A DNA stretch of 64,000 nt from a virus. A program made the translations under genes and the position numbers. Location: positions 1-64,000 of the IMG/VR virus record IMGVR_UViG_3300030090_003995. The stretch is one strand, 5' to 3'. The notes below the pieces were generated by a model. That model was not told the origin of the DNA, did no database searches, and saw only the letters and a program-made list of their open reading frames with translations. How positions within the stretch are numbered: the stretch's first letter is position 1; every line of letters starts with the position of its first letter. Below are positions 7,470 through 46,011 of this stretch, one piece after another.

Positions 7470-7613
7470 ATGACGAATTGGAACGATATACTTAAACAAG
7501 ATAAATTAGGCATACCTAAAGATGTTGCAAAAGCAATATTAATGCGACTTTTAAAAGAAGAGAATTTTGAAGGTATGAAGCAATTATTAAATGAAAGGGA
7601 AATTGGTCATTAA
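7470..7613 (+). CDS. 47-aa WxxILK-tag protein
   Basis: MTNWNDILKQDKLG...; below the ORF-track size cutoff. Confidence 0.55.
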   Translation: MTNWNDILKQDKLGIPKDVAKAILMRLLKEENFEGMKQLLNEREIGH

Positions 7614-7647
7614 AAAATTTGCCCCAAAAATTTTCGGAGGTTTTTTC

Positions 7648-7971
7648 ATGTGGGAAGTTGTTCTTAAGAAAAAGAGTAAAGTCAATATGAATGTATTACG
7701 AGAATCAGTTGATGAAGTACTAAATAAATATGATAATCCGACTCATATTAGAGTAGCATCCTTTCATGGTAGAGTTTTTCCAATCTATATAGCAAAAATG
7801 AGACAAATGGGTAGTAGAGCCAGAAAAGTAAAATCTTTAAAATCTATTTTGGGTAGAATTTTACAGACTAAAGGATGGGTTAAATCACAATTTATGGAAA
7901 GTAAGAGTGATTTCCTATTAGATACCCCAGTAAAGATTAGTGATTATTGGTATACTAAATACGGTGATTAA
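7648..7971 (+). CDS. WxxILK-tag protein, winged-helix-like; paralog of the 45733 gene
   Basis: MWEVVLKKKSKVNMNVLR..LGRILQTKGW after GGAGG. Confidence 0.65.
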   Translation: MWEVVLKKKSKVNMNVLRESVDEVLNKYDNPTHIRVASFHGRVFPIYIAKMRQMGSRARKVKSLKSILGRILQTKGWVKSQFMESKSDFLLDTPVKISDYWYTKYGD

Positions 7972-7972
7972 T

Positions 7973-8239
7973 ATGTGGAAAGATGTGCTTAAAGGTCAAA
8001 GGATAACAATGGGTGCTATTAGGCAAGTATATAATGCGTTAGATGAGAACCCTAGAACAATAAAGGAAATATCAGAAGATATAGGAGTGCATTTTAATAC
8101 GGTTATGTTTTCTTTAAGAAAAATAATGGCTAGAGACCATATATATCCGGGTGTTAGGAAAAAAGTTTCTAGTATATATAGGGAAGGAAAGCCCGAAGAA
8201 TATACAAGATATGCTTATTATATAGGTGAGTTAAAATGA
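7973..8239 (+). CDS. WxxILK-tag protein with winged HTH
   Basis: MWKDVLK; TIKEISEDIGVHFNTVMFSLRKI HTH pattern. Confidence 0.7.
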   Translation: MWKDVLKGQRITMGAIRQVYNALDENPRTIKEISEDIGVHFNTVMFSLRKIMARDHIYPGVRKKVSSIYREGKPEEYTRYAYYIGELK

Positions 8240-8448
8240 GTTGGAAAAATATTATCAAAAGTAGTGATAAAATTAAAATTGATAAATACTTCAAGGAGAC
8301 AAAACAAGGTTTATATGATATGTTACTTCCAACATGGGAGGAAGACCCGAATTTACTAAAAAAGCATATTGAAACAATGTTTGCAGAATTAATGAAAATG
8401 GTATTAGGTGGAACAGCAGAAGAACAATATCATGATTATAAATATTAA
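8236..8448 (+). CDS. WxxILK-tag hypothetical protein
   Basis: MSWKNIIKS; GGTGA RBS. Confidence 0.7.
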   Translation: MSWKNIIKSSDKIKIDKYFKETKQGLYDMLLPTWEEDPNLLKKHIETMFAELMKMVLGGTAEEQYHDYKY

Positions 8449-8458
8449 GGGGAATAAT

Positions 8459-8821
8459 ATGCGTTGGGAAACTATATTAAAAAATGTTAGCCCTGCTACT
8501 CTACTTGCAAGGACTACACAATTAAATGATTCAAAGGCCACAGGTAGAAGTGAAGTTATAAGAATTATGAAAGATAATCGTGATAGAATTGGTAATGATT
8601 ATCCCACACTTGACCATCTTAAAGAGGCTCTGAAAAATTATTATCAAGAATTATATTTAACTAAGACTGAAGAGTGGTTTAATCAAGCGACTTGGATGCA
8701 GAACACATTAAATGATGCTGGATATACTTATAATGATGTAAATTGGGAAGAGGCGTTAATTCCAGTGCTTAATGTTTATGATGAAATTATTGATTCTATT
8801 GAATATGGTGATTTGCAATGA
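8459..8821 (+). CDS. WxxILK-tag hypothetical protein
   Basis: MRWETILKN; DVNWEE motif shared with the 13963 gene. Confidence 0.7.
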   Translation: MRWETILKNVSPATLLARTTQLNDSKATGRSEVIRIMKDNRDRIGNDYPTLDHLKEALKNYYQELYLTKTEEWFNQATWMQNTLNDAGYTYNDVNWEEALIPVLNVYDEIIDSIEYGDLQ

Positions 8822-10191
8822 CTTGGGAATATGTGTTAAAAGCGCCTTGGGTGCAAAATATTGATTTTAAAGCGCATGATGCGCCAAGAATTGGTAGATA
8901 CATAAAGTATTTAGAAAATTTACTTGATGAAAACAATAGAAATAGTTTTAAACGTTGGTGGTCTATGGGTTCAATTAAAACTGGGCCTAGACCTGAAGGT
9001 AGTTATTTTGATTCTTCTGACATATACGGGAAATTTTCAATTCGTCGTTATCCTCCCCTTAGTGAAAAACATGGACAAACGCCCACTAGTTACGAAGATG
9101 TAGTTAATGAATATAGAATTACTTGGCCTAAATTTTTAAAACGACAAACACCGGAAAAAAAAGCAACATACCCAAAAGAGTGGACACCAGAACAAGACCC
9201 CCGTTGGCAACAATTTGAATATAGAACTTCCGATTTACCCGCAAGTGGCGTATTACATATGAAAGCGTATTATGACAGAAATAAAGACATAGATTCTAAT
9301 ATGGATATAGTGTATGAAAAAGAATTTGAGGATGACCCAGATAGTGCTTTAGAAAAGGCGGATAATGAATTCAAAGAGTTAATTGATGATTTAGAACAAC
9401 TAACTACTGATTTACGTAAGCGATATATTGCATACAGAACTGATTCTTACAAAACAGCCCAAAAGTTTACTTTGGAAGAGATTCTCGGTGAAATGGTAAG
9501 AGATGGGATAGTACCTCCTTCTGGCGTAAAAAATTCTAGAGGTGATTATTATACTGTATCAGAAAGTCATCACGGTGTAACTATAAATTTATATCCACAT
9601 TGGCTACCAAGAACAACAAGGTTTGAAGGTGGTAAAGTAGGAAATGTGACTCATTTAAGAGTAAGGGCAAACCCTTCACAGGGGCCGGGAGATTTTGCAT
9701 TATGTTACATGGATGGTAAAAAACAAATTGCGGAAACTTGTACATATAAGGCCGCATACGGAGATACTAGTTATGCAGATGCATTCTCTATGATAATTAG
9801 TGCAACGATGGAATTAGACGAACGAGGGTTTATGACAGCCACAGCATTACCCAATTGGGGAAATACTAGAGAATCCCAACGCACTCAAACAGGTAATATC
9901 AAAGAATGGCATTATTTACCAGTTGACTCATCATGGTATCAAAAAGGAATTACTTTAATTAAACGAACTTTGGAGAATTTGAAAAAAATAGGCCGTGAAT
10001 GGCATTCAGAACTTAGAGCAGTAGTATATACTCATGGCGGTCAAATGCCAAAAGAAGGGGAAAGGCTCACTGGTGAATGGGAAAGGGAAGATATTCTTGC
10101 ACAAAGAAAACCTAGAGTTAGACCGTGGTTTCAACATTTGAGTAGTGAGGAAATAAAACGACGTCTTATGGAAGAAGCAAAAAGGTTGTGA
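8818..10191 (+). CDS. WxxILK-tag hypothetical protein (457 aa)
   Basis: MTWEYVLKA; long ORF; GGTGA RBS. Confidence 0.8.
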   Translation: MTWEYVLKAPWVQNIDFKAHDAPRIGRYIKYLENLLDENNRNSFKRWWSMGSIKTGPRPEGSYFDSSDIYGKFSIRRYPPLSEKHGQTPTSYEDVVNEYRITWPKFLKRQTPEKKATYPKEWTPEQDPRWQQFEYRTSDLPASGVLHMKAYYDRNKDIDSNMDIVYEKEFEDDPDSALEKADNEFKELIDDLEQLTTDLRKRYIAYRTDSYKTAQKFTLEEILGEMVRDGIVPPSGVKNSRGDYYTVSESHHGVTINLYPHWLPRTTRFEGGKVGNVTHLRVRANPSQGPGDFALCYMDGKKQIAETCTYKAAYGDTSYADAFSMIISATMELDERGFMTATALPNWGNTRESQRTQTGNIKEWHYLPVDSSWYQKGITLIKRTLENLKKIGREWHSELRAVVYTHGGQMPKEGERLTGEWEREDILAQRKPRVRPWFQHLSSEEIKRRLMEEAKRL

Positions 10192-10197
10192 AATTAA

Positions 10198-10827
10198 ATG
10201 GCTTGGCAAGATATATTAAAAAATCAAAGAAAGGTTAGGCAACCTAGAACATCAACAACAACTGTTGATGTTTCTGGTAGAAAAAGAAATTTGTTACCTA
10301 AGTGGGTTCTAAATAATACTACAAGTGAAATTAGTGCAGGAATTAGAGTACAATATAATACTTTACCAGAAATGTTTAGAATGAATAGTGATAAGGATAA
10401 GATGTTGTTGGCTGCTTGGTATTTAAGAAGTTACATTCCTAGAATACATGGTAGGTTTCAACGCAATCTTAGAGAAAAGAACCCATTTGCGAAAAAAGGC
10501 CCATCTATTGCACCAATGCAGGTAGTTCCTATTAAGAGCATGACAGGAAAATTATTAAGTTACGTATTAATAAAATATGAGAAAAAGTTTCCGAGAATTA
10601 ATTTTTTAAGAATTAAGGGTAAGGCTGCTGATTTCCCGAATCTTGAAGTTATGGATTTAGGAAATGGTAGCCCAGAACTTAATTGGGAAAATAATAATGA
10701 AGCAAAGGATTACTTTAGACAAGTCTTTGGTCCAGCAGAAGTAGGAGAAACTCCGCAACAACCAGAAACAAGAACTATTGGTGATACTGTTGATGAAGAA
10801 ACTAGAAGAACTATGGGAGGTAATTAA
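10198..10827 (+). CDS. WxxILK-tag hypothetical protein
   Basis: MAWQDILKN. Confidence 0.75.
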   Translation: MAWQDILKNQRKVRQPRTSTTTVDVSGRKRNLLPKWVLNNTTSEISAGIRVQYNTLPEMFRMNSDKDKMLLAAWYLRSYIPRIHGRFQRNLREKNPFAKKGPSIAPMQVVPIKSMTGKLLSYVLIKYEKKFPRINFLRIKGKAADFPNLEVMDLGNGSPELNWENNNEAKDYFRQVFGPAEVGETPQQPETRTIGDTVDEETRRTMGGN

Positions 10828-10828
10828 A

Positions 10829-11335
10829 ATGAAAATGGCTCCAACTGATGATAATCCTATTGATTACTTGAAGAAGTTAGAAGGTATTCATGCCTTTATT
10901 ACAGAAGTTTTAGATGTAGGTCAATTAGTTGGAAAAACTCCACAACTTATTAGAATGAAAGCACAATTACAAAGTATAAATCGTTCTGCAGAAAAGGCTA
11001 TTAATGCGATTGCAGATAATGATTATATTGCCCCTCCTAATATTAGTGAAAATTTTAATCGTTTTATGAATCATATTTTAGAAATATTCCATGAATATGG
11101 TTTAATAAATAGTTGGAATAATAGTGAATATTCTGGTATGGATAAATTACAAGAGGAATTAAAAAGTGAGAGTTGGTGGAATACCCTTAAGACGGGTGGC
11201 ACTATCACAAGTGGGAAGGCGGGAATCACAAACATGGCTTATGGAAAAGGGGCGCAAAAACCAAAGAAGCCCAAAAAGATAAAAGAAGAAGAGTTTCCTA
11301 TTGTTCCTAAAGATTTAGATTTTTGGAGAGATTAA
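10829..11335 (+). CDS. Hypothetical protein with internal WWNTLK motif
   Basis: Start MKMAP after GGAGG; ELKSESWWNTLKTGG. Confidence 0.7.
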   Translation: MKMAPTDDNPIDYLKKLEGIHAFITEVLDVGQLVGKTPQLIRMKAQLQSINRSAEKAINAIADNDYIAPPNISENFNRFMNHILEIFHEYGLINSWNNSEYSGMDKLQEELKSESWWNTLKTGGTITSGKAGITNMAYGKGAQKPKKPKKIKEEEFPIVPKDLDFWRD

Positions 11336-11336
11336 A

Positions 11337-11723
11337 ATGAGTTGGGAAATCATACTAAAAGAAATGGTTTGCCCTAGAGCAACGCAAGATTTACAATTAA
11401 ACACTAAGAATAGAAATGCAGCAATTAAAGCAGAACATATTAAATATGGCCCACTCAATTTGTCAGACGAACAATATTGGGTAGACGCAGCAAAACATTG
11501 GAAAACAACTACTGAGGTCGCTAAAGATTCAAAATGTTCTAACTGTATTGCGTTTGATATTTCTCCTAGAATGGAAGAATGTATGCCACTCGAAGGAGAT
11601 TTAGGATATTGTTGGATGCACCACTTTAAGTGCCATAAAGATAGAACTTGTTATACTTGGGCCGCTGGTGGACCAATTGATGACGATAAGACTTCAAAAC
11701 AGAATCAAGAAAAGGGTGAGTAA
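11337..11723 (+). CDS. WxxILK-tag cysteine-rich protein (HiPIP-like metal-binding pattern)
   Basis: MSWEIILKE; CSNC...GYCW..FKC...RTCYTW. Confidence 0.65.
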   Translation: MSWEIILKEMVCPRATQDLQLNTKNRNAAIKAEHIKYGPLNLSDEQYWVDAAKHWKTTTEVAKDSKCSNCIAFDISPRMEECMPLEGDLGYCWMHHFKCHKDRTCYTWAAGGPIDDDKTSKQNQEKGE

Positions 11724-13100
11724 ATGTCTTGGCAATCTATTCTTAAATCATATGACCTTGATGATTTTATTATTGTTAAGGAAAAGAAAAAGAAAGTGAC
11801 AGAGAAAAAGAAAAAAACTAAAGATACAATAAAATTACCCAATGGTGATGAAGCCGAGGTTGATTATGTTTCTGAGTTTGAAAATGTTGTGGATGCTTTA
11901 GAAGATTGGAAACAGAAAGTAGAAGACGTTTCAATTGATGATTTACGTATGACTGGTCGCGGGGCAAAACAAAATTTATCTGTTCAAAATTTATTTGAAG
12001 TTATTGATGAACACGTAACACAAAAAGCCAAAAGAGATGGTGTGGGTGATTATGGTCCCGGAGTTAAAGATATAATTGAAGAAATTAAAAAAGCAGTTGA
12101 GTCTAAAAATTTATTAGATGAAAAAAATTTACAAAATTTATCAGATTATACTGCAAACCTTAAAAAGGTAGGTAGACCTAAATCAAAAGTAAACCCTCAA
12201 AATATTGTTTTTACTGTTCCTGATACTGTTGGTAAAGATGGCGCAACAAGTTGGAAAAAAGTGTATGGCCATTATAGAACGCCTGAATATATTAAACATA
12301 GAAAGGCTAAAGGTAAAAAAGAAACTATTACAACTCCAGCAAAGGACTCTTGGTATAATAAAGAAATGGGAGTAGCAAAACCCCCTATGTGGCAAGTTTT
12401 ATTTGGAAAAAATGCTGGAGAAACAGAAGATATTCCGGGTATAAATAAGGGGTTATTGCCGTTATTAGAAGAGTTTGAAGATATTATTGGTGTCCCCGGA
12501 CCAATTGCAGTACTAAAAGATTATGAAATTAAAGGTGCTTTTGAGCGTAAGGCTATTGAGAAATCACCTTCTTTTATGAAAGCCTTAACTGAAGTATTAA
12601 GTGACCAAAGTTCATATAGAGATGCTACTGGTAGTAAACCTTTTGATAGATTATGGATTAATTATGCCGCAGTTAAAAGAGCATTACAAATAAAACCGAT
12701 TGACGTTATTGATGAGAAAGATTCAGATTTCATTTTAGAATTACAAGGGTTAAAAGAATTGAAAGATAATTATGAAATCGACTCATTTAGAATTACTAAT
12801 ATTTCACTTAGATTAATAAGAACTATTTTGAAAAATATTGAAGATAACCCAGTAATCGCTACTGATAATTTCTTAGACACTCATCCACACGGAACAAACC
12901 TTAAAGGTATTTTTCTTGAAAAACCTATTAATAGGTTGAATGATAGAAAGGAATTGTGGGATGATGAAATTAAAAGGTTAAAGGGAGAAAATAAAGAAAT
13001 TCCCCCTTGGGCAAGACCACCAGATATGCCGCCTGAAAGTGGAAGTGATGAAAAGAAAATGCTTAAGTCTCATTGGACAGATTATTTAAGGAGGTATTAA
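11724..13100 (+). CDS. WxxILK-tag hypothetical protein (458 aa)
   Basis: MSWQSILKS; C-terminus KMLKSHWTDYLRRY. Confidence 0.8.
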   Translation: MSWQSILKSYDLDDFIIVKEKKKKVTEKKKKTKDTIKLPNGDEAEVDYVSEFENVVDALEDWKQKVEDVSIDDLRMTGRGAKQNLSVQNLFEVIDEHVTQKAKRDGVGDYGPGVKDIIEEIKKAVESKNLLDEKNLQNLSDYTANLKKVGRPKSKVNPQNIVFTVPDTVGKDGATSWKKVYGHYRTPEYIKHRKAKGKKETITTPAKDSWYNKEMGVAKPPMWQVLFGKNAGETEDIPGINKGLLPLLEEFEDIIGVPGPIAVLKDYEIKGAFERKAIEKSPSFMKALTEVLSDQSSYRDATGSKPFDRLWINYAAVKRALQIKPIDVIDEKDSDFILELQGLKELKDNYEIDSFRITNISLRLIRTILKNIEDNPVIATDNFLDTHPHGTNLKGIFLEKPINRLNDRKELWDDEIKRLKGENKEIPPWARPPDMPPESGSDEKKMLKSHWTDYLRRY

Positions 13101-13101
13101 T

Positions 13102-13962: not shown

Positions 13963-14280
13963 ATGAGTTGGAAAAATACACTTCAAAAGGGAACAGCAAC
14001 CGCTACTCGTAGTGCAGAACTATGGTCTTTAAACGATAATGACTTTTATGACCATATAAATAATTGGATTAAAGAACGTGTTTTTGAACATAAGGACCAT
14101 ATTGAAATTTTTCAAGAGTTAGTTCAATATTTACCAGAGGCTATGGCACATTTAGATGGTTTTATGGAAGAGTTAGTAGAAGGAAACCCATCAGACAGTA
14201 TTTCAGATGTTGATTGGGAAGAAGTAGCAGAAGGTTATAGACCGGAAATTGAGCAAATGTTAGAAGATTTTGGAGGGTGA
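13963..14280 (+). CDS. WxxILK-tag acidic protein
   Basis: MSWKNTLQK; ELWSLND..DVDWEEVAE. Confidence 0.7.
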   Translation: MSWKNTLQKGTATATRSAELWSLNDNDFYDHINNWIKERVFEHKDHIEIFQELVQYLPEAMAHLDGFMEELVEGNPSDSISDVDWEEVAEGYRPEIEQMLEDFGG

Positions 14281-14285
14281 CTAAT

Positions 14286-15323
14286 ATGAGTTGGAAAGAT
14301 ATTGTAAAGGCAAAAACTGGTTCTAAACGTGGTGGGTCTAAACCCGATAGAAAAAAGGTACTAACTAAACCTAAAGGTTCTGGAACTCTACATGAAGATA
14401 TTAAGGCATTTAAGGAAGGTAAACTTGAAGGTACTGGCCCGTTTGATGAGAAATTATCACCTGAAGAAATTGAAGAAATGAAAGAATTCTATGCACTTTA
14501 TCCCGAATTAGACGAATATGGATTCACAAATGTTCTTGAAAATCCACAATGGGTTAAAGATTTAAAAAAGCCTGATAAACCATATACTGTGGCACATCAT
14601 CTTAATCCAGAACATGATTTCCTTATTAGGGACTTACAGCAAAAAATGGTCAATCACCTTGAAACGCTTTTTTTAGAATTTAATTTGTTTTTAGGAAGTA
14701 GTGGTTTTGAGACCTCAAGACGTGACCCTGAAAATGACCCACACTTTCCGAAAATACCAATAAAACGCGAAGGTAGATTTCAACAGCTTAAATCTTTTAG
14801 TAATTTATTTCCATTATATTCTAAATTAATTAAGCAGTTAACTTGGGATGATAATTGGGAGAAAGAAGCAAATTCAGAAGGGTTTGATGTTTCAAAAAAT
14901 ATTTTGTGGGGCGTTAAAACTATACATTATGATGTAAAAGAAAGAACGGGTGCTAATGTTCGTCATCGGACTAGAGAAAGGTCAAGTGCGTTTGAATATG
15001 AAAGTGAACCAGCAGGGCAACCAAGTATGGTTCATGTATTAGTATTTATGCGAGGCACAATAGATTTTGAAAATTTAAATTATAAATTCTATACTTTAAA
15101 GTATACTACTGGTATGGAAAGAGATATAATACCATCAGGTAAAGTTGCACAAGGCCGTAGGGAATCGGATTACCGAGAAATTAGTGATGAAAATTATAGG
15201 GCATATTATAGGCATATGTTAAATGCTGCCGAAACTGATGTGTTAACAATAAGTGGTGAGGAACCTGATTCTACTATTATTAATAAATTACGGAGTTTCT
15301 TTGGTTATTATTTGAGGTTGTGA
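14286..15323 (+). CDS. WxxILK-tag hypothetical protein
   Basis: MSWKDIVKA. Confidence 0.75.
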   Translation: MSWKDIVKAKTGSKRGGSKPDRKKVLTKPKGSGTLHEDIKAFKEGKLEGTGPFDEKLSPEEIEEMKEFYALYPELDEYGFTNVLENPQWVKDLKKPDKPYTVAHHLNPEHDFLIRDLQQKMVNHLETLFLEFNLFLGSSGFETSRRDPENDPHFPKIPIKREGRFQQLKSFSNLFPLYSKLIKQLTWDDNWEKEANSEGFDVSKNILWGVKTIHYDVKERTGANVRHRTRERSSAFEYESEPAGQPSMVHVLVFMRGTIDFENLNYKFYTLKYTTGMERDIIPSGKVAQGRRESDYREISDENYRAYYRHMLNAAETDVLTISGEEPDSTIINKLRSFFGYYLRL

Positions 15324-15327: not shown

Positions 15328-17340
15328 ATTAGTTGGGGTCTCATTCTTAAAAGTGTTAGTTTTCCCGGAAAAGGAAAAACGCCGGCTTGGTTAACATTAT
15401 TGGGATATGAAGGTGGTGTTCTTGAAGTATGGATGGATAAGGCAAAAAAGGTTTTAGAGAAAGATGATAGCCCACCTAATTTTTCAACATTTATTAGATT
15501 ACTTAGAGATACTGAGCCTGAATATGCTGCTCAACAGTTACTTCAGTTACAAGACTTTTCAATAGCCGAAAGAAATAGACTCGACGATTTGGCTGAAGAA
15601 AATTTGGCAAAACTTCAGGAAGGGTTTAAAGAATATACTGAACAAAAAGAGGTTAAAGGTATTGCTGAGACTTCACAAAATAGAAGACAAGCAACAATTG
15701 AATTATTTCAACAGGCATCTAAATATATTGAAGCAGAAAGGGAAGTGGATTGGGAAGAAATAGATAAGGAAATTAGCCAAATTACTGATAAAAGAACTTT
15801 AGTTTCTATACTTGAGGCTTTAGGTGATGATGTTAATTTTAATATTGCTACTAACATTCCAGATAAAGGGTTTGAGAATTTAAAGGCGTTTTATAACAAG
15901 TATAGTTTTGGTGAAGGTTATCAAAAAAATTATAACGTTAATAATATCACTAATGAATTAGCATTAGTATATCTTACTGAAATTCAAGAACCAATTGTTC
16001 TTTCTGGAAAACGGCAGTTTGGAGATTTTGCTCAAAGAGGGTTCCTTGCAAATCCTGATAAACCTAATGTTGCTCGAAATCGGCCACCTGCTAAACCATT
16101 TAAAGTGAAGGGTCTACCTAAAATCCAAACAACAAAAGGTCGAAAGAAAAGATTTACTGATTTATTTTTATCGCTTTTTAAGGGTGATTTATCAGAACAA
16201 GAAAATATCACTAATCAATTAGCACAGAATTTAAAAAGTAGAGCGGTCAATAGACAGGCAGTATTAGATGTTGTTTCAGATATTGCGTTTAAAATTAACC
16301 AAGAAATGGTAACTATTGATGAGGCTAATAGAATGTCCGGTTTAAATTTTAATGTTATAGCAGACTTAATTCCTAGTACTAGGGTTGGAGATAAGGAAGA
16401 GTTTATTAAGGATTTTAAAAATACATTATTTTCTAATGGTGCTAAAGGGCAAAGAGATATGACTAGACAGTTTGAAAATAAAATGACACAGTATAGGGCT
16501 GGTGTTCCTAAACTATTTAAAGATTTTATTACTGATTTAATTAGTAAACCCAATGTTTATGAAGATGTTTTTAATTCAATTTATACTAATTCTTATTTAA
16601 AATTTAGACAAGATAGCGATTTAGGTGGGTTTATACAAATGGGAACTATGCCCGGAAAAAGTGGTAAAAGAGTTGCCAGTTGGAAAATACAACCTAATGT
16701 TCCAAACTCAAGAAAGTTAACAAAATTATATGAGTGGCTTGTCAATAGAAATCAATCAATATTAAACGATGCTAATGATAAAGAAAAATCTGGGTTAAGA
16801 GCATTAAGAAAACTTTATCGTAATTTTAGAAGAGATAATGTTGAGGACACTGAAGAAGAATTATTTGGTAATTTATTGAATATAAGTGTTAAAGATGAGT
16901 CTGACTTTTTACGTACTTTTACTGACCCCTTTGAAAAATCCATCGCTAGTTTATTTATAGAAGTTAAAGATGGCACAGTTAATTTAGAAGATTTAACCTC
17001 TACATATAATGTTAGTTTAGATAAGACTATTAATACTGTAGATTTGATTCAAGAACTTCATGAAACTGAACGGGTTGTGGGTGGTTCTAATATAACAAAT
17101 TTATTGACAAAAAAATATCCAGAGCAAATTACTCCTGAAATTACTGATGAACAATTAGCAGGTGTGGTTAGAAGTTTTATTTTAGATTTGAATAAAGTAG
17201 TCAAGAAAATCGTGGTCACAGTTAGGAAATTAATTGAAGAAAAACTTCAATTAATGGCTAATAATCAAGGTAAATATTTACCATTAAATAATGCTATATT
17301 TATTATTTTAGAAGGTAAGGGTTTAATTACGGAAGTGTAA
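15328..17340 (+). CDS. Large hypothetical protein with probable ATT start and WxxILK tag
   Basis: ORF-track start 15400; in-frame upstream ATT-AGT-TGG-GGT-CTC-ATT-CTT-AAA (xSWGLILK) at 15328 after GAGGTTGTGA. Confidence 0.7.
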   Translation: MSWGLILKSVSFPGKGKTPAWLTLLGYEGGVLEVWMDKAKKVLEKDDSPPNFSTFIRLLRDTEPEYAAQQLLQLQDFSIAERNRLDDLAEENLAKLQEGFKEYTEQKEVKGIAETSQNRRQATIELFQQASKYIEAEREVDWEEIDKEISQITDKRTLVSILEALGDDVNFNIATNIPDKGFENLKAFYNKYSFGEGYQKNYNVNNITNELALVYLTEIQEPIVLSGKRQFGDFAQRGFLANPDKPNVARNRPPAKPFKVKGLPKIQTTKGRKKRFTDLFLSLFKGDLSEQENITNQLAQNLKSRAVNRQAVLDVVSDIAFKINQEMVTIDEANRMSGLNFNVIADLIPSTRVGDKEEFIKDFKNTLFSNGAKGQRDMTRQFENKMTQYRAGVPKLFKDFITDLISKPNVYEDVFNSIYTNSYLKFRQDSDLGGFIQMGTMPGKSGKRVASWKIQPNVPNSRKLTKLYEWLVNRNQSILNDANDKEKSGLRALRKLYRNFRRDNVEDTEEELFGNLLNISVKDESDFLRTFTDPFEKSIASLFIEVKDGTVNLEDLTSTYNVSLDKTINTVDLIQELHETERVVGGSNITNLLTKKYPEQITPEITDEQLAGVVRSFILDLNKVVKKIVVTVRKLIEEKLQLMANNQGKYLPLNNAIFIILEGKGLITEV

Positions 17341-30595: not shown

Positions 30596-30855
30596 GTTGG
30601 GAAAATATAATTAAAATGAGAAGAATTATTCCTGAAGTAGAGGAAGTCATGCCCTATTATAATGGGTTAGATGAATTACTCACTATGGTTAAAAAAGATA
30701 TGGAAGAAGTTGTAAGTTTTATTATGAATGATGATTTAGAAAGGGCCGAAATTAAGTGGGATAAAATGAAAGGAGGCATTCTCGATTTAGAAGGAACCTT
30801 TACTGGAATTAAAGACGTTAATGCGTTTATTACTAGATTATTAGGTGATGCTTAA
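30592..30855 (+). CDS. WxxILK-tag hypothetical protein
   Basis: MSWENIIKM. Confidence 0.7.
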   Translation: MSWENIIKMRRIIPEVEEVMPYYNGLDELLTMVKKDMEEVVSFIMNDDLERAEIKWDKMKGGILDLEGTFTGIKDVNAFITRLLGDA

Positions 30856-30997: not shown

Positions 30998-31243
30998 ATG
31001 AGCGAAAATAAAGATGAAACGCTAGAAGTTCTGAAATTATTAGTGGATAAAATCCAAAAATTAGAAGAAACTGTCTATAACAATGACAACGTATTAATGA
31101 AAGCGGGTCTTGTAAAGGTTGATAGTCCAACACCAAGTATGGGCGGTGGAGATGGGGTTATTCCTGATTCTAAGGCTATTGCTAAGATGAGTTGGGATGA
31201 AATCAATACATTGGTTACTCGATTAGGAGGCGGAACAATATGA
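30998..31243 (+). CDS. Small protein with scaffold-like C-terminus
   Basis: IPDSKAIAKMSWDEINTLVTRL matches the protease/scaffold C-terminus IPSGDDLAKMDWNEVHLAMARL. Confidence 0.7.
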   Translation: MSENKDETLEVLKLLVDKIQKLEETVYNNDNVLMKAGLVKVDSPTPSMGGGDGVIPDSKAIAKMSWDEINTLVTRLGGGTI

Positions 31244-35721: not shown

Positions 35722-37086
35722 ATGGTAAAATATATTAACACTATCGCTGACCTTGAACAAGCCACTTACGGTACGTTTGGTGGAAATAGCGACATTCTGA
35801 AAAGTGGTGGGTCTTTACTCGGACTTCACACAGCACACGATACAAACGCAACAAACGCATTTGTTGGAACTGCGGCTTCAAACCTCAGTAACTTGTATAA
35901 CGTAATTTATGGACAGAAAGTTTGGTCAATGCTCAATCAAGAGATTAACCCACTTTCTATTCTTCCTAAGCGACCATACACTTCAAGCGGTTGGCGCGTA
36001 TTAATTGACCGACCTGCTGGTGGAAGTGCTGCGGCTTTTGCGATTGGAACGCAAGATATTACTGCAACTCCAACTGCTGATATGAGCGCACCTTCAGCCG
36101 ATAGTATCGGTGGTGTGAAAGAAAACCACGCTTTGAATAGTGTTGGACTTTCTGAACTATCTCCAGAATATGCGACCTTATTTATGAGTCCTAAGACTGT
36201 TGCGCATATGTTCGGTTATTCCGAAGTTGCAGCAGAAATGGCGAAAATTGATGATGGTATCGGTGATATTCGTAACATTGTTCGTGAAGATATGGGTAAA
36301 TTCCACGCTGAGGTTCAGTCCAAAATGCTTGTAATGCCTCTTGAAAATTACGACCACTCAAGTTATGCAGATATTGAATTAAACTACACTTCATTATTGA
36401 AGATTGTAGCAAGTAGTCAAGAAATGGAGGCTATGATTGATGCAGGTATGCACGGTTCAATGGGTGGTTCTTCATCAACAGGCGGTTTAGTAGACCAAAT
36501 GAGTTATTTGTATGGAAACAATTCTCGTGATTTGGTTGCAAATGCTTACAATGAATCATATATGGATGCTTATGTCAATTATGGTAGTGGATATGCTGCT
36601 GGCGATGTTCGAGCATTAACTCTAACTTTGCTTAATACTACTTTGCAGAACCTCCGAACAAACGGTGGTACGCCAAAGTGTATCTTAACTGGATATGATA
36701 CAATTCAAGCAATTGCTGATTTGTTACAGTCCCAAGAACGATTTATGGAGCGAAAAGAAATTGTTCCTACACATAATGGTGTTCGTGGTGTAAAGGGCCG
36801 AGAAGTCGGTTTCCGAGTAGCGACATATTTCGATATTCCGCTAATTCCATGTAAAGATATGGCAAGCACAGGTGAAGCAACAGGTAAACTAAGCGATTTA
36901 TTGTTCTTAGACACTGACCATCTTTGGATGGCTGTAATGAAACCAACTCAATACTTTGAGGATGGTATTAATTCTGGAAACCCATTCGGTGTTGGCGCAC
37001 TTGGAAACAAGGCCATGTTCCGAACAATGGGCGAAACTGGCTGTACTTTCTTTAAGGGACAAGGCAAGATTACTAACGTGAACTGA
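35722..37086 (+). CDS. Major capsid protein (HK97 fold)
   Basis: Follows the protease/scaffold; 454 aa; strong RBS; C-terminal ATYFDIPLIP..LLFLDTDHL capsid-like pattern. Confidence 0.88.
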   Translation: MVKYINTIADLEQATYGTFGGNSDILKSGGSLLGLHTAHDTNATNAFVGTAASNLSNLYNVIYGQKVWSMLNQEINPLSILPKRPYTSSGWRVLIDRPAGGSAAAFAIGTQDITATPTADMSAPSADSIGGVKENHALNSVGLSELSPEYATLFMSPKTVAHMFGYSEVAAEMAKIDDGIGDIRNIVREDMGKFHAEVQSKMLVMPLENYDHSSYADIELNYTSLLKIVASSQEMEAMIDAGMHGSMGGSSSTGGLVDQMSYLYGNNSRDLVANAYNESYMDAYVNYGSGYAAGDVRALTLTLLNTTLQNLRTNGGTPKCILTGYDTIQAIADLLQSQERFMERKEIVPTHNGVRGVKGREVGFRVATYFDIPLIPCKDMASTGEATGKLSDLLFLDTDHLWMAVMKPTQYFEDGINSGNPFGVGALGNKAMFRTMGETGCTFFKGQGKITNVN

Positions 37087-38680: not shown

Positions 38681-38893
38681 GTGCTTTTAGACTTATTTGG
38701 TTTAGATGAAACGTCTGTTGCTTATGATATGACAAGAGCGCATTCTGCTGATATATTATTTCTAAAAATGAGAGCAATTATGTGGTGTATAACAACAGGT
38801 GTTGGGGCATTATTAATTGGTAATATATGTGGAGTATTTGGAATTAATTTCTTTGGTATGACTTGGGAATGGTTAACAGGGTTGTGGCATTAA
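38681..38893 (+). CDS. Small membrane protein
   Basis: Hydrophobic C-terminal half. Confidence 0.6.
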   Translation: MLLDLFGLDETSVAYDMTRAHSADILFLKMRAIMWCITTGVGALLIGNICGVFGINFFGMTWEWLTGLWH

Positions 38894-39249
38894 TGAGTTG
38901 GCAAGATATTTTAAAGAATGATGAAAGAAACCCTAAATTTAGGGAAGGAGATGAATTGGAGGGCTATTGGATTAGTGATTATATTAGTGATTATATTTTT
39001 GAGGGAAATAAATTACGCTCGGGTAATAGTTGGTGGGAAGAAGCCGCTGGTGAAGATTACTTGGATAAGTTATTAAAAGAATTCATAGAAAGTGGTGAAG
39101 AATATACTAAAGAAGCAGTAGATAAATGGTTGGAGAAAAATATAAGTCAAGAAGAATTTAATAGAATGGCTAAAGAAATTAGAGATGATGATTACGGCCC
39201 AGACTATGAAGATTTTGGACCGGTTGAAGGATATAAAGATTATTATTAG
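38893..39249 (+). CDS. WxxILK-tag acidic protein
   Basis: MSWQDILKN. Confidence 0.7.
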   Translation: MSWQDILKNDERNPKFREGDELEGYWISDYISDYIFEGNKLRSGNSWWEEAAGEDYLDKLLKEFIESGEEYTKEAVDKWLEKNISQEEFNRMAKEIRDDDYGPDYEDFGPVEGYKDYY

Positions 39250-39258: not shown

Positions 39259-39432
39259 ATGAGTTGGTTTGATACATTAAAAATGCACTGTGGAACTAAA
39301 CAGAAAGTAGATGATGATTTTGAAAAAACAAAAGGAATTGCTAGACAGTTACGGCCTGATTTCAAACCTGATTTTAAAGAAAAAGATACCAAAAAGTACG
39401 GAATTAAACATCAAATACGTAGAGGTCAATAG
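39259..39432 (+). CDS. WxxILK-tag small protein
   Basis: MSWFDTLKM after GGTGA. Confidence 0.65.
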   Translation: MSWFDTLKMHCGTKQKVDDDFEKTKGIARQLRPDFKPDFKEKDTKKYGIKHQIRRGQ

Positions 39433-40121: not shown

Positions 40122-40385
40122 ATGAGTTGGCAAGATATATTAAAGGATGATGCAAAATGGGGCAGAATCCATCAACATCTAAAAGATAAATTAGAAGAAT
40201 ATAAACGTGACTACCCGTCTGCAAACACTTTAAGTTTTAATAAATTTGACGAAATTTATGAAGATATTATACAGGCGGCTATTGAGGATGAACAACGTCT
40301 ACAAAAATTGGCTAAATATGCAGGATTTAGTCATTTTAATCCTCAACATCAAGGAAAAAGTGATGTGGTGGCGTTTTACTATTAG
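40122..40385 (+). CDS. WxxILK-tag hypothetical protein
   Basis: MSWQDILKD. Confidence 0.7.
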   Translation: MSWQDILKDDAKWGRIHQHLKDKLEEYKRDYPSANTLSFNKFDEIYEDIIQAAIEDEQRLQKLAKYAGFSHFNPQHQGKSDVVAFYY

Positions 40386-40394
40386 GTGATTAAT

Positions 40395-40586
40395 ATGAGT
40401 TGGGATGATATATTAAAATTAGAAACTCCCCTACAAAAACCATTGAATGAAGCGTTAAGATTGTTAGAACCAACCACGCGCTATGAGATGGATGAAAGCA
40501 AGCAACAATACCAAGATTTAAGGAATGCTATTACTAAATTTTTAGAATGGGAACAAACGTTTCTACTGAGCCAAAGAAATAGGTGA
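40395..40586 (+). CDS. WxxILK-tag small protein
   Basis: MSWDDILKL. Confidence 0.65.
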   Translation: MSWDDILKLETPLQKPLNEALRLLEPTTRYEMDESKQQYQDLRNAITKFLEWEQTFLLSQRNR

Positions 40587-40591
40587 TTAAA

Positions 40592-41149
40592 ATGGGTTGG
40601 GAAGATATTCTAAAATTAAGATACAAGCCACCGAAAAAATTTGGATACGAAAGTGATGCAGATTTCAAGAGAAGATTGGCAGCATACGACCGAAAATATC
40701 AAAGTGACAAAAGTAGAGGTGTTTTAGGAACAAGAGAAGAAATTGAAGCCGATGAGCAACGTAAGAAAGATAAATTTGCTCAAAATCAAAAAGAATTAGA
40801 GGAATCATCAATTGATTGGAATAAAGCACTAAACACTATGGTTTTGCTAGAAAAAGAAGTAAAACGTAGATTTGAACCGAGAGGTAATGACCCCGGAGAA
40901 AGGATGTTACAAAATGTATTTATAAATGCGGCTAATAAACCAATGCGAGAATTAGCAGATATTTACCTCGCTCAACCTAAAGGTTCAGAAGGCGGAATAA
41001 AAGAATGGAATAGAGCAAGAAGGTATCTTGCTCAAGTTTTACTTGACCCTCGATATGTTGGTCTGTTAAATAATTTAAGATTAGCGCGTGATGATGAGTC
41101 ATTAGAAAGGTTTCTTGAAAATAATGGGTTTGGAGATGGTTCTGAATGA
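40592..41149 (+). CDS. WxxILK-tag hypothetical protein
   Basis: MGWEDILKL. Confidence 0.7.
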   Translation: MGWEDILKLRYKPPKKFGYESDADFKRRLAAYDRKYQSDKSRGVLGTREEIEADEQRKKDKFAQNQKELEESSIDWNKALNTMVLLEKEVKRRFEPRGNDPGERMLQNVFINAANKPMRELADIYLAQPKGSEGGIKEWNRARRYLAQVLLDPRYVGLLNNLRLARDDESLERFLENNGFGDGSE

Positions 41150-44226: not shown

Positions 44227-44228
44227 TA

Positions 44229-45323
44229 ATGGTTAAGTTATCATCACCATCTGACTATACGGCAGTAAATCCTAACTATGCTATTGGGCAAGGGTATTAC
44301 ACTAACGAAGATAAAATAGCAGATTTACTACAAATACCATCTTTCTCCGCCACGACCAATCCATCTTACGACCAAGTGGGCGACATTATTAAGGATGTAG
44401 AAGACGAAATAGATGAAAAAACCGGAATGTCGTTTAGACCAATCATTTACGCGAATGAGATGCACAATTTTCGTAGTCCAACGGGCGGGTCTTTGCGAAA
44501 GTGGCCCTCATGGTGGTCAGACTACGTTGGTTTTTGCCAACTAAACCACAGACATATCCGCAAAATGATTAGAATAGAAGTTTGGCAGGGAAATAGGTGG
44601 ACAGACCTTTGTTCGGCAACTGCAAAGGTTAGCGTGTCTAATGACCAAGTTGGTTCTAGCGGTTCTATTACACTAACATTACCTAATAACGTAACATTCG
44701 TTTTAAATAAAGGAACGACAAATAGCCAATACAATAATGCCTATGGTGCTAAAACTATTGCTCAAGAAATTTGTCATTTAATAAATGAAACCTTTCCTTC
44801 AATAACTGCTAGATTTACAGGTGCTACTGCTTCTAAATCTTTAGTGGGTTCAGATGGAACTAATGTTTCTGATTTCTTTTATGCTACTGTAAATACAGAA
44901 GATGAAACTGAAGTTATAATTTCTTCATTATTACCCGGCGATGATGGGTCACAATGTTCTATTGCAGTAACAGGTTCGGGTTTAACTAAAAGCGATTTTA
45001 CAGATAATGAAGAAATGAAACGTCTTGGTACATGGTGGAAAGTAGATGAAGAAGGCCGTATTTTCTTTAGAACCAAATTTCCTTATATGGAAAAAAATTC
45101 AATTCGTATGACTTATATTGCAGGTAATCCTAGAGTTCCCGGAATTATTTCTCAAGCAGCAACAAAAATGTCAGCGATGGAAATTTTACGGCATGATGAC
45201 CAAACAGTGTTAATTGCAGAATCAGGTTCACAAATTGATATTAAAACTAAATACGACTTGTTAAAACAAGAAGCCGCAGAATTATTGAAACTTACAAGAG
45301 AAACTATCTTTTTGATTGAGTGA
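44229..45323 (+). CDS. Putative head-tail adaptor/neck protein with insertion
   Basis: Position; EDEIDEKTG and YIAG..VPGIISQAATKM resemble gp6/gp15-type adaptors. Confidence 0.6.
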   Translation: MVKLSSPSDYTAVNPNYAIGQGYYTNEDKIADLLQIPSFSATTNPSYDQVGDIIKDVEDEIDEKTGMSFRPIIYANEMHNFRSPTGGSLRKWPSWWSDYVGFCQLNHRHIRKMIRIEVWQGNRWTDLCSATAKVSVSNDQVGSSGSITLTLPNNVTFVLNKGTTNSQYNNAYGAKTIAQEICHLINETFPSITARFTGATASKSLVGSDGTNVSDFFYATVNTEDETEVIISSLLPGDDGSQCSIAVTGSGLTKSDFTDNEEMKRLGTWWKVDEEGRIFFRTKFPYMEKNSIRMTYIAGNPRVPGIISQAATKMSAMEILRHDDQTVLIAESGSQIDIKTKYDLLKQEAAELLKLTRETIFLIE

Positions 45324-45328
45324 TTAAT

Positions 45329-45733
45329 ATGTCATGGACTAATATTCTAAAAAATGAGTCTCATTTTATTTGGAATGCAGATATATTTTCTTGGTCTGAT
45401 AAGCACAAAGAGTGGCTTGAAAGTTTAGATTGGGGTCAAATTAGACAATACAAAACAGGATTTCCAATTTGGCAGATAGAAAAACACTTCAATTCTCAAA
45501 TTACTGACTTAAAGGGAATTATGGATAAGGCATGGGAAGCCCTTTCAGAAAATCTTGAAGATAAAAAAGAGTTACAGCAATTAAGTGATAGTTTAGGTAA
45601 TCAATATCAAGAGATGATAACAGGGATTCTTAATCATGCTAATGATGCATTTAGACAAATAGCAGGAATTCAATATGATTTGGCAAGTCAAGATGAAGCA
45701 ACAGGAGCAGTTAAACTAAAGTGGGTGGAATAA
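45329..45733 (+). CDS. WxxILK-tag hypothetical protein
   Basis: MSWTNILKN. Confidence 0.7.
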   Translation: MSWTNILKNESHFIWNADIFSWSDKHKEWLESLDWGQIRQYKTGFPIWQIEKHFNSQITDLKGIMDKAWEALSENLEDKKELQQLSDSLGNQYQEMITGILNHANDAFRQIAGIQYDLASQDEATGAVKLKWVE

Positions 45734-46011
45734 TGACGTGGGATACTGTTCTTAAAGTTAGAAGAAAAATAAATATGCCTCATTTAAAAAGAATTGTAGA
45801 CCATATTTTACCAAACATGGTTGAAGATGAATTTGCGTTATCAGATTTAGCAAAAATGGTTACAACGACTTATTTAGAATATAATCCTAATACTAAACGG
45901 GCGTTAAATATATCCTCTATTTTAAGTCAAATGTTACAAAATAGAGGATATGAGCAGTTTTATAAATATTCTAAGGGTCAACGTTTAACTTATTATAGGA
46001 AAGTGCAATAA
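45733..46011 (+). CDS. WxxILK-tag winged-helix-like protein; paralog of the 7648 gene
   Basis: MTWDTVLKVRRKINMPHLK..LSQMLQNRGY. Confidence 0.65.
   Translation: MTWDTVLKVRRKINMPHLKRIVDHILPNMVEDEFALSDLAKMVTTTYLEYNPNTKRALNISSILSQMLQNRGYEQFYKYSKGQRLTYYRKVQ

Follow-up and report, generated by a model that had tools for sequence, protein, structure and literature searches.

Introduction

The scaffolds of phages P22 and 80alpha have coat-binding C-termini, and Duda, Oh and Hendrix reportedly described, in 2013, a C-terminal capsid-targeting tail on the HK97 maturation protease. The herpesvirus assemblin has release (R) and maturation (M) sites; its parts are arranged as protease, site, scaffold, site and C-terminal capsid anchor, with one consensus reused each time. 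In phage T4, a 10-residue capsid-targeting sequence (CTS), found on IPI-III and Alt, is removed by the prohead protease gp21 and is enough on its own for foreign cargo to be loaded (PMC9026906). In HK97, the type system for S78, the capsid protein is cut at K103/S104 (PMC10275583).

Here we describe a peptide tag encoded in a window of 64,000 nucleotides (positions 1 to 64,000 of the 87,979-bp IMG/VR record IMGVR_UViG_3300030090_003995), whose source is a marine archaeal tailed virus related to the magroviruses. Magroviruses belong to the most abundant surface-ocean viruses. A first-pass annotation had seen a shared N-terminal tag on 25 proteins and had read it as an archaeal-virus counterpart of the T4 system. 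The literature on magroviruses and archaeal tailed viruses that we consulted makes no mention of such an N-terminal motif or leader (PMC5434244, PMC11706807, PMC10160649, PMC8651126).

Results

The pattern M-x(0-2)-W-x-x-[ILVT]-[LIV]-K opens 25 genes, 24 with ATG and one with ATT, which is roughly one in four of the virus's genes (Table 1). All 25 starts listed in the annotation translate to this pattern, the one at 13963 as ..TLQK. In a six-frame scan, 25 of the 39 matches to the W-core were the N-termini of these genes, and 24 ORFs of at least 40 aa open with the motif in the real genome, whereas the reversed sequence has none and 50 shuffles average 0.04, with at most 1. The tag Lys is conserved at 97% and nothing is conserved beyond it. 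The gene at 15328 has no in-frame ATG, GTG or TTG after the upstream stop and reads ..TGA GGT TGT GAT ATT ATT AGT TGG; because its ortholog in the nearest relative has an ordinary ATG start and begins MSWQILLK, the tag is taken as genuine and the start codon alone as unusual. An MNWAILLK on the minus strand at ~246 opens an ORF of only 29 aa and was treated as a chance match.

All tags are on the + strand from 7470 to 46011, in a block that also encodes the terminase, the portal, the S78 protease-scaffold and the capsid protein. Their absence from the early region and the tail genes, noted in the annotation, held, with no tags in 1-7.4 kb or after 46220, and a motif scan of the record's 64-88 kb found none. 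Tags thus open 25 of the 52 head-block genes and none of the ~54 tail, replication and other genes (Fisher p = 4e-10).

Table 1. Tagged genes, further motif copies and head-assembly features in the window; a slash within a motif marks a putative cleavage position
Feature	Coordinates	Strand	Length (aa)	Motif	Remark
Tagged gene	7470..7613	+	47	MTNWNDILK	
Tagged gene	7648..7971	+	107	MWEVVLK	
Tagged gene	7973..8239	+	88	MWKDVLK	
Tagged gene	8236..8448	+	70	MSWKNIIK	
Tagged gene	8459..8821	+	120	MRWETILK	
Tagged gene	8818..10191	+	457	MTWEYVLK	Weak homolog in nearest relative
Tagged gene	10198..10827	+	209	MAWQDILK	
Internal tag	11174..11191	+		..SESWWNTLK/TGG	Met-less; near residue 128 in the 180-aa product of 10793-11335
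Tagged gene	11337..11723	+	128	MSWEIILK	Cys-rich
Tagged gene	11724..13100	+	458	MSWQSILK	Family includes members with variant tags and others without a recognisable tag
Tagged gene	13963..14280	+	105	MSWKNTLQK	Variant tag
Tagged gene	14286..15323	+	345	MSWKDIVK	
Tagged gene	15328..17340	+	670	ISWGLILK	ATT instead of canonical start
Tagged gene	23355..23780	+	141	MWFDLLK	Cys-rich domain from residue 8, directly behind tag
Tagged gene	23783..24052	+	89	MEEWFNTLK	Basic; CxxC pairs
Tagged gene	25867..26310	+	147	MSWFDILK	3' of portal
Tagged gene	29913..30266	+	117	MSWKKILK	
Tagged gene	30263..30595	+	110	MTWFEVIK	Core family conserved across the clade; variable tag-core linker
Tagged gene	30592..30855	+	87	MSWENIIK	
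Mini-scaffold motif	31187..31207	+		M-S-W-D-E-I-N	Near C-terminus of 81-aa protein 30998-31243, 18 residues before stop
S78 prohead protease-scaffold	34356..35693	+	445		Protease fused to acidic/coiled-coil scaffold
Candidate N-terminal processing site or fold part	34413..34427	+		F-Q-I-I-K/S	Protease residues 20-24
Candidate release site	34869..34883	+		F-D-I-L-K/Q	Residues 172-176, protease/scaffold junction; invariant
Candidate site freeing scaffold from anchor	35571..35582	+		V-I-R-K/Q	36 residues before scaffold end
Scaffold C-terminal motif	35637..35657	+		M-D-W-N-E-V-H	Invariant M428 and W430; core shared with tag
Major capsid protein	35722..37086	+			HK97-type, SU10_MCP
Candidate maturation site	35791..35802	+		D-I-L-K/S	Capsid protein residues 24-27
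Tagged gene	38893..39249	+	118	MSWQDILK	Cassette absent from nearest relative
Tagged gene	39259..39432	+	57	MSWFDTLK	Cassette absent from nearest relative
Tagged gene	40122..40385	+	87	MSWQDILK	Cassette absent from nearest relative
Tagged gene	40395..40586	+	63	MSWDDILK	Cassette absent from nearest relative
Tagged gene	40592..41149	+	185	MGWEDILK	Cassette absent from nearest relative
Tagged gene	45329..45733	+	134	MSWTNILK	Missing from nearest relative
Tagged gene	45733..46011	+	92	MTWDTVLK	Last tag ahead of tail module

The tag is a clade-wide feature: W-x-[DEN]-[IVT]-[LI]-K, usually as an N-terminal M-S-W-x-D-I-L-K, is a short linear motif found in archaeal tailed viruses of the magrovirus type. 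Strict tags number 5-12 or more in each complete relative and 19 in the nearest one, and in ten related records all strict tags but one (in G008) are on the strand of the capsid gene, with no match in the reversed-pattern control. The short leader is thus common to otherwise unrelated proteins, namely 25 genes of the window and, across the clade, 606 distinct ORFs that fall into at least 112 families. A search of cellular genomes (596 Gb) gave 36 scattered single matches, none of them in Poseidoniales, against ~26 expected by a hand estimate from the degeneracy of the pattern; the matches are at chance level and the tag is not a host trait. A GC-rich codon version of the tag gave ten scattered single matches in IMG/VR and no second virus group. 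A 185-kb IMG/VR record with 18 tags was rejected as a larger virus, since its two capsid genes lie ~91 kb apart and it is probably two joined genomes.

The leader is kept on genes that are themselves hypervariable. Only 6 of the 25 tagged genes have a homolog in the nearest relative, whose capsid protein is 90% identical and whose 19 tags are its own, versus 31 of the 36 untagged late genes (p = 2e-6). The tagged proteins range from 47 to 670 aa and from pI 4.1 to 10.5, with Cys-rich, acidic and basic members, as the annotation had it, while the helix-turn-helix that it also named had no Pfam or PHROG match. Pfam and PHROGs searches with all 25 proteins returned almost no matches, ESM Atlas gave no usable match for the proteins from 8818 and 11724, and a homolog search with the latter found only unnamed metagenomic proteins.

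A TM-like segment is predicted in 1 of the 606 tagged ORFs versus 111 of 1334 untagged ORFs on the same strand (p = 2e-17); the tagged proteins are soluble, almost without exception. A signal peptide or membrane leader was rejected on this count and on the tag being 8 residues long and amphipathic. The tag is a separable add-on: the domain of the 23355 protein starts directly behind it, and in the 30263 family the linker varies, some tags are split and a few members have none. Where a family includes members lacking a recognisable tag, the tag is therefore not obligatory for that family.

Nor is the motif strictly N-terminal, as the annotation had described it, although all 25 of its examples are. 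Met-less copies inside or at the C-terminus of proteins number 36 in the relatives, versus 3.6 ± 1.8 in shuffles, and the internal copy in the window is also present in homologs from two relatives. These copies are often at junctions where a protein fused in one genome is two genes in another; some C-terminal copies are followed by just 1-3 residues.

The same core recurs in the scaffold. A conserved short peptide, M-[SD]-W-x-[DE]-[IVL]-[HND], lies ~18 residues from the scaffold stop in every relative examined, and in the scaffold of the window a helix is predicted at residues 430-444; the motif has His or Asn where the tag has φ-K (φ = hydrophobic), and the Lys is absent. The mini-scaffold, a conserved protein of 65-90 aa in relatives, ends in the same motif, and these two are the only non-cargo proteins that bear it, both near the C-terminus.

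The second half of the tag recurs as well, in that [DEN]-φ-φ-K is found at the N-terminal border of the capsid protein, at the protease/scaffold junction and ~36 residues before the scaffold end. In the capsid protein, every relative keeps φ-L-K/[SGA][GA]G, preceded by a Gly/Asn linker whose length varies; F20, I22 and K24 of the protease are invariant in 12 relatives, and I407 and K409 of V-I-R-K/Q are nearly so. The two protease sites (20-24 and 172-176) may be conserved as parts of the S78 fold instead of as cut sites. The structure model of the protease-scaffold was poor, with a pLDDT of 49, and the AlphaFold2 model of the capsid protein (12-sequence alignment) reached only 32. In the haloarchaeal relative HVTV-1, inspection by eye of the protease-scaffold, the capsid protein and ten neighbouring N-termini revealed no comparable motif.

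Discussion

On balance, we favour the reading that the tag is a signal for docking to the procapsid, probably trimmed off by the protease, and an analogue but no homologue of the T4 CTS. The motif would most likely dock proteins onto the inner side of the assembling procapsid: since its first half, M-S/D-W-x-D/E-I/V, equals the scaffold's C-terminal peptide, at the position of the capsid anchors of scaffolds and proteases in other HK97-fold systems, tagged proteins would occupy the scaffold's binding site on the capsid protein or on another procapsid component, and would so be built into the head. The S78 prohead protease would probably cut after the Lys of the second half, because φ-φ-K matches the conserved sites in the capsid N-terminus, between protease and scaffold and before the scaffold anchor; cutting would remove the tag, free the cargo within the head and split multi-domain cargo at its internal tags. 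The cargo would be a large, soluble and rapidly exchanged accessory set, of 25 proteins here and hundreds of families across the clade, that would leave the head together with the DNA.

The capsid-cargo proposal of the first-pass annotation gains from the scaffold motif, the φ-φ-K sites, the restriction to one strand, the solubility and the hypervariability; it needs amending in that the system is not a T4 homologue and the putative cut falls after Lys, and injection of an effector payload is its least supported step. Some observations count against cargo and cleavage: a small residue follows the Lys of the capsid site and the residue after the tag Lys is not conserved, the tagged genes in 7470-17340 lie upstream of the terminase, some families have untagged members, and the codon bias described below shows a DNA-level component. 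So does the number of cargo proteins count against it: 25, with several as long as 345-670 aa, is to our knowledge far above any characterised system of this capsid class.

Like the T4 CTS (PMC9026906), the tag is a leader of ~8-10 residues on otherwise unrelated, non-essential-looking proteins whose genes are hypervariable between relatives; its front half would target and its end would be the protease site, and the putative protease motif is also found in the capsid and scaffold proteins. Homology was rejected, given that the protease matches Peptidase_S78 and is not gp21-type and that the motif ends in Lys and not in L/I-x-E. The two systems have no sequence or family relationship, and the one described here, known from sequence alone, has an archaeal host, a putative cut after Lys instead of Glu, 25 tagged genes (a quarter or so of the genome) versus about 4-6, and a motif that is also internal or C-terminal and equals the scaffold's own C-terminal peptide.

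The protease-scaffold shares its Pfam family (S78) with the HK97 protease and has a conserved short C-terminal peptide at the anchor position; unlike the anchors of HK97, P22 and 80alpha, this peptide is copied to many unrelated proteins, mostly at the N-terminus, and joined to a putative cleavage site. The order of protease, sites, scaffold and anchor and the reuse of one consensus resemble the herpesvirus assemblin, which differs in protease fold family and consensus and lacks a comparable set of tagged cargo proteins. Encapsulin cargo-loading peptides (PMC8346489, PMC8802124) are likewise short, modular, transferable terminal peptides that address diverse cargo into an HK97-fold shell, but they are unrelated in sequence, and proteolysis would release the cargo here, which would then exit along with the DNA. 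A shell lacking packaging and tail genes, as in encapsulins, was rejected, for the genome has a terminase, a portal, a tail tube, a tail chaperone and a tape measure, and this is a true virus. With the ejection-protein propeptides of the giant phages phiKZ and SPN3US and the polyvalent or MuF-fused effectors (PMC7411985, PMC10052503) the tag would share the trimming of many head-internal proteins at one short motif and the cutting of multi-domain cargo at junctions; there, however, long propeptides that are not a common leader are cut after Glu, in bacterial viruses whose genomes are 3 times larger.

The tag might dock proteins to another late hub, such as the chaperonin-like protein that the virus encodes, a host factor or, outside the shell, the terminase/portal complex, and so concentrate them at the assembly site without encapsidation. 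The motif does behave as a position-independent short linear motif on soluble proteins, but we consider this unlikely, because its non-cargo bearers, the scaffold and the scaffold-like mini-protein, carry it where scaffolds of other systems contact the capsid protein with their C-terminal region (PMC12749128). Similarly unlikely is a signal for processing without capsid targeting, in which S78 or another viral or host endopeptidase would cut a propeptide or between domains, and late accessory proteins would stay inactive or fused until maturation. The φ-φ-K half shared with capsid protein and protease junctions and the internal copies at domain junctions fit such a signal; however, a prohead protease is normally active only within the procapsid, so its substrates would have to be there anyway, the W half is shared with a scaffold motif that has no Lys, and C-terminal copies with 1-3 residues behind them would gain nothing from cutting. 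Highly improbable is a modification site, whether the Lys were the acceptor for viral ubiquitin-like conjugation (E1/ThiF-like plus JAB) or the N-terminus the substrate of a viral GNAT. An E1-like gene co-occurs with the tag in 5/5 complete relatives and the tag Lys is nearly invariant, yet that gene sits in the opposite-strand replication block with nothing to tie it to the head genes, no Ubl with a terminal GG was seen, and the scaffold's copy has His or Asn for φ-K. GNAT-dependent N-terminal modification was rejected, as GNAT is missing from three tag-bearing relatives.

Codon usage bears on a DNA- or mRNA-level origin, and on the annotation's argument that synonymous variation points to protein-level selection. 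That argument holds for Leu, encoded in the tags by 3 codons in the window and by 5-6 in those of relatives, drawn from CTN as well as TTR, and not for Ser (AGT in 85-98% of tags versus a background of 25%) or Ile (ATA in 60-70% versus 23%). The Ser and Ile biases indicate common ancestry at the DNA level, or a preference in the start region, in addition to selection on the protein. It is nonetheless quite improbable that the junction of stop, Shine-Dalgarno and ATG-AGT-TGG...ATA-TTA-AAA is itself the selected element, as a recombination site for cassette swapping or a translation-initiation enhancer, and the peptide a by-product. Near-identical junctions are indeed common to neighbouring cassettes, and tagged genes come and go as cassettes. 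Against this, the tag Lys and Asp codons match the background, tag substitutions stay hydrophobic (I/V/T, L/I/V), Met-less copies far from any ribosome-binding site are ten times above shuffles, and the GGTGAT ribosome-binding site also precedes untagged genes such as that of the capsid protein; moreover, the Ser of the scaffold motif is mostly encoded by TCN, so the same peptide is kept via different codons. Cassette exchange may well be promoted by the shared sequence, as a side effect.

If the procapsid-docking reading is true, roughly a quarter of the 'dark matter' genes in a globally abundant group of archaeal viruses would be head cargo, and a one-line sequence rule would find cargo genes in any metagenome. 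Cargo addressing of the T4 style would extend to archaeal viruses with HK97-type proteases, and its route of origin would be the reuse of the scaffold's own capsid anchor. The hypervariable proteins would be candidates for host takeover and anti-defence in uncultured Poseidoniales, and the tag would offer an 8-residue handle by which foreign proteins could be loaded into these capsids. A further-reaching reading, possible but to us a little short of probable, is that scaffold anchor and protease site have been copied onto hundreds of unrelated soluble families, and that each virion brings a strain-specific arsenal into the archaeal cell along with its DNA; no archaeal virus would have been known before to address cargo to its capsid, and for its genome size the system would be the largest on record.

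Among the families that would belong to such an arsenal are PAP2-type phosphatases of a soluble kind, a pentapeptide-repeat protein and, possibly, the DNA ligase of the head module.

Distribution of the tag in the window

The first-pass annotation had listed 25 genes, named here by start coordinate, that begin with a common tag, and all 25/25 carry M-x(0-2)-W-x-x-[ILVT]-[LIV]-K. The genome holds 24 ORFs (≥40 aa) that start with ATG and carry the motif, against none in the reversed sequence and a mean of 0.04 in shuffles. The 25th tagged gene, 15328, has its tag preceded by ATT, and its ortholog in the nearest relative, an incomplete related record, begins with a normal ATG and MSWQILLK. This 670-aa gene has no in-frame ATG, GTG or TTG past the upstream stop, the tag coming after ATT ATT (15328-15333); translation may begin at ATT, or the start codon may have been mutated recently or misread in sequencing. 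The proposed confinement of the tags also held: they occur only within 7470-46011 and are missing from the tail genes and from both 1-7.4 kb and 64-88 kb, and the tagged share is 25/52 in that block versus 0/~54 elsewhere (p = 4e-10). A logo built from 132 non-redundant tags of the window and its relatives reads M, S (55%; else T/N/A/E), W (100%), [EKQF], [DEN], [IVT], [LIV], K (97%), with no conservation beyond the Lys.

The source record is a single contig of 87,979 bp, the window being its first 64 kb; since a 95.8-kb contig carries a tagged protein identical to one from the window, the complete genome is probably ~96 kb. All genes across 7.4-63 kb lie on the + strand. The capsid protein shares ~30% identity with those of the haloarchaeal siphoviruses HVTV-1 and HCTV-5 and 60-95% with hundreds of marine IMG/VR contigs (~90-100 kb), and this profile fits that of the Marine Group II magroviruses (PMC5434244). 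A GNAT acetyltransferase gene lies upstream of the terminase; only 3/5 complete relatives have it and the nearest relative lacks it, making it an accessory gene despite its core position. The 448-aa protein adjoining the large terminase has its HNH endonuclease domain at residues 283-411 (phrog_5046). Among the neck genes, between tagged cassettes, a 222-aa protein (80% identity in the nearest relative) gave weak small-GTPase matches (Roc, Ras, MMR_HSR1; E 2e-4 to 2e-3, below Pfam cut-offs).

Features of the window and of related records
Feature	Position	Strand	Basis
180-aa protein with near-tag	10793-11335	+	
GNAT	19721-20596	+	Pfam/PHROGs
Large terminase	20580	+	Pfam/PHROGs
HNH-containing protein	22006-23352	+	Pfam/PHROGs
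Portal	24219	+	Pfam/PHROGs
81-aa "mini-scaffold"	30998-31243	+	
ATP-dependent DNA ligase	31755-34319	+	Pfam/PHROGs
S78 prohead protease fused to scaffold	34356-35693	+	Pfam/PHROGs
HK97-type major capsid protein	35722-37086	+	Pfam/PHROGs
222-aa protein among neck genes	39443-40111	+	
Tail tube	46830	+	Pfam/PHROGs
Tail chaperone	48526	+	Pfam/PHROGs
Tape measure	49130	+	Pfam/PHROGs
ORFs with N-termini that by eye are chaperonin-like and co-chaperonin-like (G000, past the window)	80666-82464	-	
Tagged PAP2-type phosphatase protein	L141:9369-10379		
Tagged PAP2-type phosphatase protein	L096:4274-5110		
Tagged PAP2-type phosphatase protein	L126:10737-11309		
Tagged PAP2-type phosphatase protein	L189:4356-4925		
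Tagged PAP2-type phosphatase protein	L075:594-1118		

The tag across related viruses and cellular genomes

Related records were scanned with a strict DNA pattern encoding M-x-W-x-x-[IVT]-φ-K, where φ is a hydrophobic residue. It matched 5-12 times in every one of five records with a completeness rating of 92-100%, 19 times in the nearest relative, 10 times in a second incomplete record, once in a third (G007) and 18 times in a record with two capsid genes; all matches but one, in G008, lie on the capsid-gene strand, and the reversed-pattern control gave none. Overall, 2 Mb of related loci yielded 606 distinct tagged ORFs, which fall into no fewer than 112 similarity groups. The commonest codon version, run against 596 Gb of bacterial and archaeal genomes, gave 36 scattered singletons, versus ~26 expected by chance as estimated from the degeneracy of the pattern; no contig there had two matches and none came from Poseidoniales. 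A GC-rich codon version searched in IMG/VR returned nothing coherent. The scan of magroviruses against cellular genomes that had been suggested earlier finds the motif in every related record scanned and at about chance level in cells. The tag is a real feature, highly non-random and conserved in the clade, and by these searches it is specific to the viruses. No mention of it was found in magrovirus and archaeal tailed virus papers (PMC5434244, PMC11706807, PMC10160649, PMC8651126) or by a full-text search.

The record with two capsid genes (G005, behind locus L103; 184,733 bp, rated 100% complete) has them ~91 kb apart, with 62% and 60% identity to the window capsid protein, and probably represents two related genomes that were fused by the assembly.

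Tagged proteins are diverse, soluble and rapidly replaced

As had been claimed, the 25 products are very different from one another (47-670 aa, pI 4.1-10.5, some Cys-rich), and almost all of them gave no database match. The domain of the 23355 product, which starts at residue 8, has matches in the interior of larger phage proteins. Members of the conserved 30263 family have linkers of 0 to ~40 residues after the tag, which is sometimes split (M-T-W-D...F-I-L-K) and in a few members lost, while the 11724 family includes members without a recognisable tag and others with variants; by these comparisons the tag is modular. Tagged proteins are soluble, membrane proteins accounting for 1/606 of them versus 111/1334 untagged same-strand ORFs (p = 2e-17), a comparison in which some short ORFs of the untagged set may not be real genes.

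A domain survey of 140 longer tagged proteins of relatives identified five with a PAP2 phosphatase domain and no membrane segments, and pentapeptide repeats, a GNAT-family match and a DUF5754 match in one each. The five PAP2-type domains carry the K-R-x-R-P, P-S-G-H and S-R..H..D signatures, and in two of these proteins tag-like internal motifs connect the domain to the Cys-rich modules that also occur in window gene 23355. Directly upstream of the prohead protease, an 854-aa DNA ligase has homologs in three relatives with a tag-like K-K-W-K-[DN]-[IT]-V-K at residue ~44, the corresponding window site being a degenerate K-D-W-E-K-A-V-D-K; it may be a packaged ligase.

The capsid, terminase and portal proteins of the nearest relative are 88-90% identical to those of the window, yet a homolog is detectable there for only 6/25 tagged versus 31/36 untagged late genes (p = 2e-6), although 19 tags occur in that relative itself. 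Tagged runs at 38893-39432, 40122-41149 and 45329-46011 interrupt conserved neck genes that are nearly adjacent in the nearest relative (gaps of 64, 14 and 244 nt), and where the window has two tagged genes the relative has a run of seven. T4-type internal-protein loci behave in the same way.

The motif recurs in the scaffold and inside proteins

An M-[SD]-W-x-[DE]-[IVL] core lies ~18 residues before the C-terminus of the protease-scaffold and is invariant in every relative; a conserved protein of 65-90 aa has the same motif at its end. The window copy of the latter, a "mini-scaffold" kept in at least eight related loci, has a C-terminal ..A-K-M-S-W-D-E-I-N.. that mirrors the scaffold anchor, and may serve as an additional scaffold, as a competitor or as a size factor. 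The full motif without Met occurs internally or C-terminally in proteins of relatives 36 times versus 3.6 ± 1.8 in shuffles, and is thus independent of position. Several copies sit precisely at junctions where a fusion in one genome corresponds to two genes in another, as in ..IIKSWFDFLK/AKSK.. and ..KKSWENIIK/RKK.. (the slash marks a putative cut); a variant with Gln for Lys outside this count, ..SKSWEDILQ/SG.., separates PAP2 and Cys-rich domains. The window has one Met-less internal copy, ..SESWWNTLK/TGG at 11174. This copy is at residue 128 of the 180-aa protein beginning M-K-K-L-E-E-L-W-E-V-I-K, a near-tag one residue short, and that protein may be a two-part cargo precursor. The scaffold core, the end of the 65-90-aa protein and the internal and C-terminal copies together show that it is the peptide itself that counts.

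Sites of a φ-φ-K type that look like protease targets are present in both head proteins. The capsid protein N-terminus has a conserved helix-like segment, a variable-length Gly/Asn linker and an invariant φ-L-K followed by [SGA][GA]G (D-I-L-K27/S28 in the window); in HK97, the reference S78 system, the capsid protein is cut at K103/S104 (PMC10275583). In the protease-scaffold, F20-x-I22-x-K24 near the N-terminus and F-D-I-L-K176 at the end of the protease domain are invariant, and I407-x-K409, 36 residues from the scaffold end and directly upstream of the W motif, is nearly so. Both sites flanking the protease may belong to its fold rather than being cut. A structure model too weak to discriminate between these readings (pLDDT 49) puts F-D-I-L-K past the last core strand, where confidence is low, and predicts a helix at residues 430-444. 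Herpesvirus release and maturation sites follow a layout of protease, site, scaffold, site and anchor, which the order in the window protease-scaffold parallels.

Proposed role of the tag and alternative explanations

We infer that the tag combines a docking peptide derived from the capsid anchor of the scaffold with the preferred site of the prohead protease. Proteins bearing the tag would be taken into the procapsid, lose it by a cut after its Lys and stay in the head until the DNA exits, internal tags being the points where fused cargo would be split. The analysis shows the motif statistics, the presence of the motif in the scaffold, its independence of position, its specificity to the viruses, and the solubility and turnover of its bearers, whereas the binding partner, cleavage, packaging and injection are inferred. 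The sequence comparisons give good support to an addressing motif that acts at the protein level and is linked to head assembly, and the packaging and injection system is putative. That the tag is a capsid-targeting signal we hold to be slightly better than an even chance; we are somewhat less confident of cleavage after the Lys, and less again of an effector role after injection.

It is unlikely that the tag docks to a different late hub instead of the procapsid; two ORFs past the window (520 and 77 aa), with N-termini that by eye are chaperonin-like and co-chaperonin-like, bear on whether the tag binds a viral chaperone. Only a little more doubtful is a processing signal without targeting. 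The motif might also act at the DNA or mRNA level, as an element of cassettes or of initiation, its peptide being a by-product. The synonymous variation claimed earlier stands for Leu, for which both CTN and TTR families are used, but not for Ser and Ile: AGT encodes the Ser in 85-98% of tags (25% background) and ATA the Ile in 60-70% (23%), with Lys, Asp and Glu at background usage. By this bias the tag DNA was probably spread by copying, or the second codon is under constraint; in addition, W, both hydrophobic positions and K are maintained at the protein level. A nucleic acid element is nevertheless improbable: the internal and C-terminal copies count against it, as do the differing Ser codons of the long scaffolds (TCT, TCG or TCA). 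Most improbable is that the tag Lys is a modification site; an E1-like gene is present in 5/5 relatives, so the phyletic pattern is compatible with such a role. A GNAT role in modification is ruled out by three tag-bearing relatives without GNAT.

The proposed capsid-targeting system recalls encapsulin cargo-loading peptides, giant-phage ejection proteins trimmed by protease and the C-terminal targeting tail that the HK97 protease reportedly carries. Functionally nearest is the T4 capsid targeting sequence (PMC9026906); however, its protease family and cut residue differ, and with no homology either, membership in that system is ruled out. The tag system would be a new variation on a known principle of capsid-cargo addressing, not a T4 homolog.
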